A stretch of DNA of 64,000 nucleotides from an uncultured Candidatus Saccharibacteria bacterium (GTDB lineage Bacteria; Patescibacteriota; Minisyncoccia; Minisyncoccales; GWA2-38-27), in assembly GCA_964609075.1 (NCBI GenBank), contig CAZSQP010000001.1, positions 97,593 through 161,592 of the forward strand. The letters run 5' to 3'. Under the pieces are notes generated by a model. The model did not search any database and had not been told where the DNA came from. It saw only the letters and a list, made by a program, of their open reading frames with translations. Both the position numbers and the translations under genes were made by a program. Position 1 is the first letter of the stretch. Each line of letters opens with the position of its first letter. This document shows, piece by piece, positions 24,611 to 24,720 of this stretch.

Positions 24611-24629
24611 CGCAAGGCTCCTTATTAAA

Positions 24630-24672
24630 GGTTCGCCCCTTCCACCGGACCACCCGGCGTCCCAGACGAACC
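24630..24672 (-). promoter_or_regulatory. Structured GC-rich 5' leader of the target gene with GGGUGGUCC hairpin
   Basis: Outer stem GGUUCG/CGAACC. Inner hairpin CGCCGG-GUGGU-CCGGUG (24643-24659). The 9-mer ends 36 nt before the ATG. Confidence 0.55.
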
Positions 24673-24691
24673 ACTCTAGAGAACTACTTAC

Positions 24692-24720
24692 ATTATATCA
24701 AAAAATTAACTCTTTGTCAA
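24692..24720 (-). promoter_or_regulatory. Consensus sigma70-type promoter of the DGR target gene
   Basis: On the - strand: TTGACA (24715-24720), 17 nt spacer, TATAAT (24692-24697). The -35 lies inside the 3' end of the Nudix gene. Confidence 0.65.

Follow-up and report, generated by a model that had tools for sequence, protein, structure and literature searches.

The 64,000-nucleotide stretch analysed here (the window, meaning the whole stretch at its full length; contig CAZSQP010000001.1 of assembly GCA_964609075.1, positions 97,593 to 161,592, from an uncultured Candidatus Saccharibacteria bacterium) has a GC content of 36% and carries a diversity-generating retroelement (DGR) whose target gene is preceded by a structured leader RNA, the main subject of this study. 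The locus is a DGR: it holds a reverse transcriptase (RT) gene (Pfam RVT_1, E = 3e-23) together with a template repeat (TR) and a variable repeat (VR) that are 83% identical, with their differences at TR adenines and the VR forming the 3' end of target gene 1. The predicted structure of the target 1 protein has a mean predicted local distance difference test score (pLDDT) of 84, and its Foldseek matches, though weak, are all C-type lectins. Strong terminator-like hairpins lie 3' of target 1 and also 3' of the TR. A second gene in the window, called the paralogue below, encodes a related protein (24% identity to target 1 over 113 aa), so that the two leaders resemble each other more than the two genes do. 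Work on DGRs has so far centred on the rewriting of the VR, while control of variable-protein expression is almost unexplored, and nothing is known about such control for the very abundant DGRs of Patescibacteria.

Both genes are preceded by a perfect TTGACA-17-TATAAT promoter with its -35 hexamer in the stop region of the gene upstream, as an earlier note on this DNA, made from the letters alone, had reported. Each promoter agrees with the sigma-70 consensus at 12 of 12 hexamer positions and has a 17-bp spacer; the -35 of target 1 overlaps the final codons of a NUDIX gene (...L T K S stop) and that of the paralogue the final codons of a His_Phos_1 gene (...L T E N stop). Three perfect TTGACA-N16-18-TATAAT sites occur in the window, against 0.03 expected. 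Transcription is presumed to start ~7 nt past the -10, which fits the position of a conserved cAGTWC motif found 5-7 nt past the -10 in ~30 homologous leaders. Since target transcription strength only mildly affects retrohoming in the reconstituted BPP-1 system (PMC12875486), the strong target promoter is unlikely to be a driver of retrohoming. The earlier note had also described in each leader a hairpin with a GUGGU loop and an identical 9-mer, GGGTGGTCC, ending 36 nt before the ATG, with the Shine-Dalgarno (SD) sequence AAGGAGC at a nearly equal offset; RNAfold returns both hairpins at the places described, and the spacing is correct. Nor is the 9-mer frequent by chance, as it has only two sites in the window (~0.08 expected, estimated from composition). 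The folding of the single hairpins is only moderately unusual (z = -1.6 in target 1, -4.4 in the paralogue).

The target 1 hairpin is stem P2 of a larger structured element of 45 nt, which we named R1 (Table 1). To describe it, 86 protein homologues of target 1 and 144 loci encoding them were assembled, from metagenome-assembled genomes of Patescibacteria lineages that include Yanofskybacteria, Liptonbacteria, Falkowbacteria and Paceibacterota. Across the family, the outer stem P1 typically reads GGCAAGCC...GGYGAGCC over 8 bp, often with a tandem purine-purine 2x2 mismatch; it is followed by a 4x4 or 5x5 internal loop, UGGG / GAGG (5' YKRG, 3' RAGR, with the A-G near-invariant), and by a covarying P2 of 7-9 bp whose apical loop is variable. 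Conservation of unpaired nucleotides is concentrated in the internal loop, where, of 58 sequences, 50 have A at J21.2 and 53 have G at J21.3, both on the 3' side, and 44 have G at J12.4 on the 5' side. The conserved core of R1, as judged from these alignments, is P1 with the UGGG/GAGG internal loop and not the 9-mer.

Support for the structure comes from several comparisons. A seed of 34 sequences, picked with a pairing descriptor, was used to build a covariance model; all 15 pairs of the seed vary on both sides, 87% of cells are paired as against 28-47% with slid partners, and the covariation score is 0.63-0.66 as against 0.07-0.19, with none of 500 shuffles reaching the observed value. The covariation holds on the model-derived alignment of 46 distinct sequences, and both stems are recovered by RNAalifold from a plain MAFFT alignment made without the pairing descriptor. 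When all distinct leaders of full-length Patescibacteria homologues sharing the N-terminus were taken without pre-selection, 52 of the 60 had a match to the R1 model and 5 more had visible variants. Over 727 kb of loci the model gave 68 matches, of which 65 are distinct sense-strand matches (67 if the window's own copy, searched in both runs, is counted), all directly upstream of a target homologue, and one locus (L024) has a second copy before a second, tandem target. The window itself contains a single match, that of the target 1 leader. All strong matches are sense-strand ones, with 0-40 nt between their 3' end and the SD. The only two antisense matches in the 727 kb are weak and overlap sense matches, and this, together with the many G-U pairs, argues that the conserved entity is an RNA read from the sense strand. 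No copy near a TR or RT gene, which might have hinted at binding by the RT, was found in any locus searched with the model, and a pattern scan of viral contigs gave nothing. Between the window and its closest orthologue, L001, R1 is identical at 43 of 45 positions where the coding DNA is 74-75% identical. R1 is a conserved, covarying, family-specific, sense-strand structure that lies between a strong promoter and a strong SD.

Table 1. Positions in the window of the DGR, of the two leaders and of their elements
Feature	Position	Strand	Description
Target 1 promoter	24692..24720	-	TTGACA 24720-24715, 17-nt spacer, TATAAT 24697-24692; TG extension before the -10
Element near the transcription start, AGTTCTCTAGAG	24674..24685	-	directly 5' of R1; family consensus cAGTWCNTTRA; boxA-like, 8/11
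R1	24629..24673	-	45 nt; covariance model match 42 bits, E = 1.7e-9; also by fold, covariation and de novo RNAalifold
R1 stem P1	24672-24665 with 24637-24630	-	outer stem, 8 bp
R1 internal loop	24664-24660 opposite 24642-24638	-	UGGGA opposite GAAGG; purine-rich
R1 stem P2 (target 1 hairpin)	24643-24659	-	CGCCGG 24659-24654, loop GUGGU 24653-24649, CCGGUG 24648-24643
Target 1 9-mer, GGGTGGTCC	24647..24655	-	tip of P2; not kept across the family
Target 1 SD, AAGGAGC	24617..24623	-	6 nt (24616-24611) before ATG 24610-24608
DGR target gene 1	23999..24610	-	203 aa; N-terminal helical region, C-type-lectin-like C-terminal domain; VR 24145-24001
Terminator-like hairpin	23912..23943	-	14-bp stem and U-tract, directly 3' of target 1 and VR
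Tandem GGUUACGGCU-loop hairpins	~23869-23838 and 23818-23785	-	two copies between the terminator-like hairpin and TR
Remainder of the DGR	22137..23667	-	TR 23667-23523; RT gene 23132-22137
Paralogue promoter	15538..15566	-	TTGACA 15566-15561, 17-nt spacer, TATAAT 15543-15538
Paralogue leader hairpin	15504..15526	-	AGAUGAAGG 15526-15518, loop GUGGU 15517-15513, CCUUCAUCU 15512-15504; not R1
Paralogue 9-mer, GGGTGGTCC	15511-15519	-	36 nt to ATG 15474
Second paralogue hairpin	15478..15499	-	boxA-like UAGUUCUUU pairs with AAGGAGCUG, sequestering the SD; L150 keeps the stem, with a different loop
Paralogue SD	15480-15486	-	ATG at 15474
Paralogous C-type-lectin-type gene	14848..15474	-	208 aa; TR-like AAC-rich 3' end; apparently frameshifted

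The earlier note had proposed a selected RNA element specific to the DGR target family, with the 9-mer as its invariant core. The first part stands for the target 1 leader, which covaries and is specific to its family, and the check that the note itself had suggested, a covariance model of homologous leaders, returned a conserved structure; the second part does not stand, as the 9-mer is not kept in those leaders. In the alternative that follows from the note, the functional unit would be a hairpin shared by both paralogues and built on an invariant GGGUGGUCC core, such as a specific protein-binding loop, with stems that merely covary around it. The equal offset of the 9-mer in the two window leaders would fit this, as would its identity in L150, a syntenic orthologue of the paralogue, and the recurrence of similar tips: the pattern GG[AG]TGGTC[CT] has 13 occurrences in 775 kb, about the expected number, but 6 of these are hairpin tips located 33-50 nt before start codons (L078, L084, L114, L150 and both window genes), where ~0.1 would be expected in an equal amount of leader sequence. 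In addition, UGG is present in 17 of 58 P2 loops (~30%). Against it, the 9-mer is found in none of the 144 loci of the target 1 family and is absent from the paralogue-family leaders L145, L146, L148, L149, L151 and L154; the tip of L001 reads GGGUGUUCC, a G-to-U change inside the 9-mer, while the rest of R1 is conserved; the remaining ~70% of P2 loops are unrelated; and the conserved nucleotides are those of P1 and the internal loop. We accordingly rejected the 9-mer as a family signature and consider a loop-centred unit improbable, whereas the RUGGU tip appears from these leaders to be recurrent without being defining. The shorter word GGGTGGT was tried as a DGR-wide signal and dropped as weak (5 copies in the window against 1.8 expected, not kept by L001).

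The leader of the paralogue is of a different kind. It has no match to the R1 model, and switching off the search filters for the identical contig L153 did not change this; the differences between the two window hairpins that the note had read as compensatory changes are not supported as such: they were drawn from two sequences in unlike structural contexts. Within the paralogue's own family (63 homologues), L150 has His_Phos_1 upstream, 55% protein identity and 59% coding DNA identity, and it keeps the paralogue hairpin GATGAAGGGTGGTCCTTCATC at 21 of 21 positions; it also keeps the downstream AATAGTTCTTTT...GAAAGGAGCTGAC, which forms the SD-sequestering hairpin. Most leaders of this family differ from that of the window and, like the six named above, lack the 9-mer. 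Weak R1-like hairpins are nevertheless found in L155 (15.8 bits) and L159 (12 bits), and the tip of the L159 hairpin is that of L001. The supposed relation of the two hairpins is thus partly rescued: because GG-RUGGU-CY tips recur in both families and L159 shares the L001 tip, they are plausibly related, and the paralogue hairpin is probably a derivative of P2 that lacks P1 and the internal loop. In the paralogue this hairpin would be coupled to the one in which the boxA-like segment sequesters the SD. At its 3' end (14848-14940, minus strand) the paralogue aligns to the TR and retains TR-like AAC-rich codons, with an apparent 1-nt deletion that makes the reading frame ~20 codons longer; it may be a decayed or remote VR.

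The statement in the note that the element has no described counterpart is borne out for the target 1 leader, whose structure matches no curated Rfam 15 family. At the gathering score the window has only a tmRNA and one tRNA, both elsewhere, and 20 canonical loci have only tRNAs. The best sub-threshold match of the window leader is to the KDPG-aldolase RNA (RF03115), the two having in common an outer stem, GGNNCG...AGGGGCGNNCC, and a 3' junction rich in G; this match reaches 16 bits against a gathering score of 54.6 (E = 0.8), is not repeated in the 20 canonical loci, and involves a different gene context and different taxa, and it was treated as chance. Readings of the internal loop as an 11-nt tetraloop receptor (CUAU/AAGG loop flavour), a K-turn or a loop-E were set aside, as by-eye inspection gave no fit to the canonical consensus. 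R1 also matches none of RT-1 to RT-19, the structured RNAs found beside bacterial reverse-transcriptase genes (PMC5737381; Weinberg et al. 2017), and differs from them in being located upstream of the target gene and not beside the RT. R1 is a leader RNA, probably of the cis-regulatory kind, outside every curated family to which it was compared; the known bacterial cis-regulatory RNAs, among which this lineage is poorly represented, would thereby be extended by an uncurated motif.

On balance, we lean towards a reading in which R1 is a cis-regulatory element in the 5' untranslated region (5' UTR) of genes for small C-type-lectin-fold DGR variable proteins and is bound by a trans-acting factor. 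R1 would serve as the docking site for this factor, with the internal loop as the recognition surface and the RUGGU tip as an auxiliary or lineage-specific contact, and binding would set the translation and/or the lifetime of the variable-protein mRNA. A protein would be a more probable factor than a small ligand, judging from the small size of the motif, the placement of its conserved nucleotides in symmetric purine-rich loops and the lack of an expression platform. The nearest parallel is provided by protein-binding 5'-UTR operators such as the ribosomal-protein leaders and thrS, which resemble R1 in being small irregular hairpins with conserved internal-loop nucleotides, in their place between transcription start and SD, in their specificity for one gene family and in the lack of a terminator. 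R1 differs from these operators in having no known binding protein, in its SD distance of 0-40 nt and in showing no identified mimicry of an rRNA or tRNA site; moreover, it precedes a hypervariable DGR target where those operators regulate housekeeping RNA-binding proteins. Such a covarying leader RNA, confined to one gene family, would indicate dedicated post-transcriptional control of a hypermutating gene, for which R1, as a 45-nt RNA with defined conserved nucleotides, offers a concrete handle.

Several observations weigh against this regulatory reading. No binding partner, ligand or expression platform was identified for R1, the downstream gene gives no clue to a ligand, and no terminator lies between R1 and the ATG. 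R1 and the SD are separated by anything from 0 to ~40 nt, in some leaders including an additional hairpin, which speaks against a simple steric occlusion of the ribosome. Nor is the SD consistently paired. RNAfold pairs AGUUCU of the window leader with the SD around R1, but this closing helix was rejected as a family feature, since the pairing of the 5' segment with the SD reaches p<=0.05 against shuffles in only one of 30 leaders (window p = 0.32) and is no better than shuffles in the other 29; it may act in the window lineage and in the paralogue. With no terminator, SD pairing like that of shuffles and variable spacing, R1 does not have the expression platform of a riboswitch. Because the 3' half of R1 is rich in purines and resembles an SD, its sequence may be conserved in part for a different reason. 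It should also be noted that the loci were gathered by protein homology, and that the absence of R1 elsewhere covers ~0.8 Mb only.

The same leaders could be explained by RNA processing or stability, R1 being an irregular helix of ~20 bp (about two turns) that acts as an RNase III-type site or as a protective 5' structure of a highly expressed mRNA, without a specific regulator. Its length and irregular-helix geometry are suitable, the promoter and SD are strong, and a variable distance to the SD would be tolerated. R1, however, does not begin at the presumed 5' end itself but ~5-13 nt, or in other leaders 50-90 nt, further in, and the conservation of its unpaired nucleotides goes beyond what simple stability would need. 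We therefore regard a role confined to processing or stability as doubtful.

The leaders of the family open with the strong promoter, followed by ~10 nt of conserved boxA-like 5' sequence and by R1; an A-rich spacer, 0-40 nt long, then leads to the SD and the ATG. In short-class leaders, including that of the window, R1 begins 9-29 nt past the -10 (18 nt in the window). In long-class leaders 59-99 nt intervene, which contain, besides a boxA-like GTTCTTTGAnAAT, an (A)CTTGCGG block and a long hairpin. The strands of this hairpin read GGUURCRGC on the 5' side and GCYGUAACC on the 3' side (e.g., L007 2874-2919, L021, L075, L077 and L142 2699-2749), and it is absent from the window's short leader. 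All leaders start with cAGTWCNTTRA, which is similar to boxA (consensus GYTCTTTAANA in gamma-proteobacteria; PMC5725501). With this consensus, which may not be that of the host, GTTCTCTAGAG of target 1 agrees at 8 of 11 positions, GTTCTTTTAGA of the paralogue at 10 of 11 and GTTCTTTAAAA of L073 at 11 of 11.

This 5' sequence raises the possibility of nut- or rrn-like antitermination, in which a boxA-like site for NusB/NusE and the adjacent hairpin would allow read-through past the post-VR terminator into TR and RT, or of a suhB-like translational repression by Nus factors. As at the boxA/Nus sites of rrn leaders, lambda nut and the suhB 5' UTR (PMC5725501), a GYTCTTTAANA-like sequence stands at the start of the transcript, 50-80 nt from the start codon and beside a hairpin (directly 5' of R1 in target 1), and some members, such as L073, match the consensus fully; boxA is also known upstream of CRISPR arrays (PMC7665894). 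The strong terminator-like hairpins after target 1 and after the TR are in keeping with such a role. So is the RT gene that follows on the same strand, at a distance of ~900 nt, in 23 of the 37 R1 loci with sufficient flank. In the paralogue, the boxA-like segment adjoins the SD and is predicted to pair with it, which follows the suhB logic. The matches in the window leaders are imperfect, however, and 14 of the R1 loci have no downstream RT. The interval from the terminator to the TR contains a promoter-like TAGTATAAT, so that TR and RT need not rely on read-through. The hairpin is also unlike boxB: a lambda nut-type site has boxA followed by a short boxB with a GNRA-like pentaloop that is bound by an N protein, whereas R1 is a 45-nt element of two stems with variable loops. 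Finally, boxA-like elements behind other window promoters (at 1147, 9220 and 28975) argue that this part of the leader is not specific to the DGR in this genome. Taken together, these data make an antitermination or Nus-type role rather unlikely. The three other boxA-like sequences, AAACTTTGAACC, AGCTTTTTGAAAAGG and TGTTCCTTAAAAATCG, follow strong promoters at 1147-1213 (+), 9220-9180 (-) and 28975-29041 (+), and the genes behind them (1214-1684, 8622-9179 and 29042-30202) have no Pfam match; the last of these regions is relatively GC-rich. Neither the window nor the fetched loci contain an rRNA operon.

A further structured element is found on the other side of the target gene. Located 130-230 nt past the target stop and upstream of the TR is a hairpin whose stem of 5-6 bp covaries and whose 10-nt loop, GGUUACGGCU, is invariant; it lies within the 5' part of the presumed TR RNA. 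It occurs in ~20 loci of both families, namely, besides the window, L001, L004, L009, L010, L026, L066, L068, L069, L071, L072, L102, L122, L127, L128, L131, L138, L142, L144, L146 and L155, with two tandem copies in L001 as in the window. In sequences picked on the loop alone, pairing holds in 98.8% of cells, with covariation at 5 of 5 pairs. The second window copy has a weak, sub-threshold likeness to the first hairpin of RT-7 (RF03028), which concerns this element and not the leader and is limited to one hairpin (18 bits against 117). The 3' strand of the long-class leader hairpin is complementary to the invariant GGUUACGGCU loop, which makes a trans RNA-RNA contact conceivable. Directly 5' of the TR is a highly conserved block, TACTTGGTGCAAGATATTAGGGCATA...GCCGAATAAGATACAAYCCYGAGAGYATTCNAAGGGYGGTGGCAGA (window 23755-23675 (-), L001 3850-3935, L142 3690-3775), which is probably part of the functional DGR RNA.

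These hairpins permit a more speculative model, in which R1 (with its recurrent RUGGU tip) and the invariant-loop hairpin before the TR are docking sites for a DGR-encoded or dedicated factor (Avd, RT), or engage in an RNA-RNA contact, and so couple the variable-protein mRNA to the retroelement. We consider such coupling very unlikely; if true, it could provide a feedback matching variable-protein expression to the activity state of the DGR, which a G/C homopolymer at the avd/RT junction (described below) might switch, and it would be the first DGR cis element located in the target 5' UTR. The known DGR cis elements, the initiation of mutagenic homing (IMH) site, the GC-rich hairpin or cruciform after the VR and the TR-spacer (TR-Sp) RNA, belong to the same genetic system, and the window too has a hairpin after the VR; as described, however, they are confined to the TR RNA or to the 3' end of the VR and the sequence following it, whereas R1 is in the target 5' UTR. 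The literature searched contained no account of a structured element at such a place in a DGR target.

That nothing here is functional, with the likeness of the leaders a residual homology of a duplicated promoter-leader-gene cassette and the hairpins incidental, would agree with the promoter spacers (12 of 17 positions identical, a likeness that stems partly from the TAA stop of the upstream gene and AT-rich sequence) and with the similar SD regions, but it is hardly credible, being contradicted by the covariation of R1 over dozens of lineages and by leaders more conserved than coding sequence in both orthologue pairs, as well as by the low identity of the two proteins.

Other features of the DGR locus were recorded. 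An avd-like four-helix open reading frame (ORF) at ~23112-23490 (+) lies between TR and RT, antisense to the target, TR and RT genes, and its ATG (23112) overlaps the first RT codons on the opposite strand. This ORF is out of frame owing to a C10 tract at ~23146-23155, which on the RT strand is a G10 located ~15 nt upstream of the RT ATG. A C/G tract of 5-11, mostly 9-11, is found at the same place in ~35 of 45 related DGR loci, with most ORFs out of frame, and its length varies between near-identical contigs (L008 and L088; L134 and L100); it may be a phase-variable switch or a homopolymer assembly error. Directly 3' of the target stop, before the terminator-like hairpin, there is a run of CCTTGG/CTTTGG-like repeats (window 23999-23950 (-)), the counterparts of which (L001 3615-3670 and L142 3440-3500) are conserved in kind. 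A 77-aa MGMT-like protein with a PCHR motif is encoded at 21914-22147 (-), the first 11 nt of its frame (22147-22137) overlapping the RT gene at its 3' end; as only L001 has a partial counterpart, it was rejected as a conserved DGR accessory gene. Elsewhere in the window, an NYN-domain gene at 17794-18423 (-) is apparently split into ORFs of 105 aa and 74 aa.

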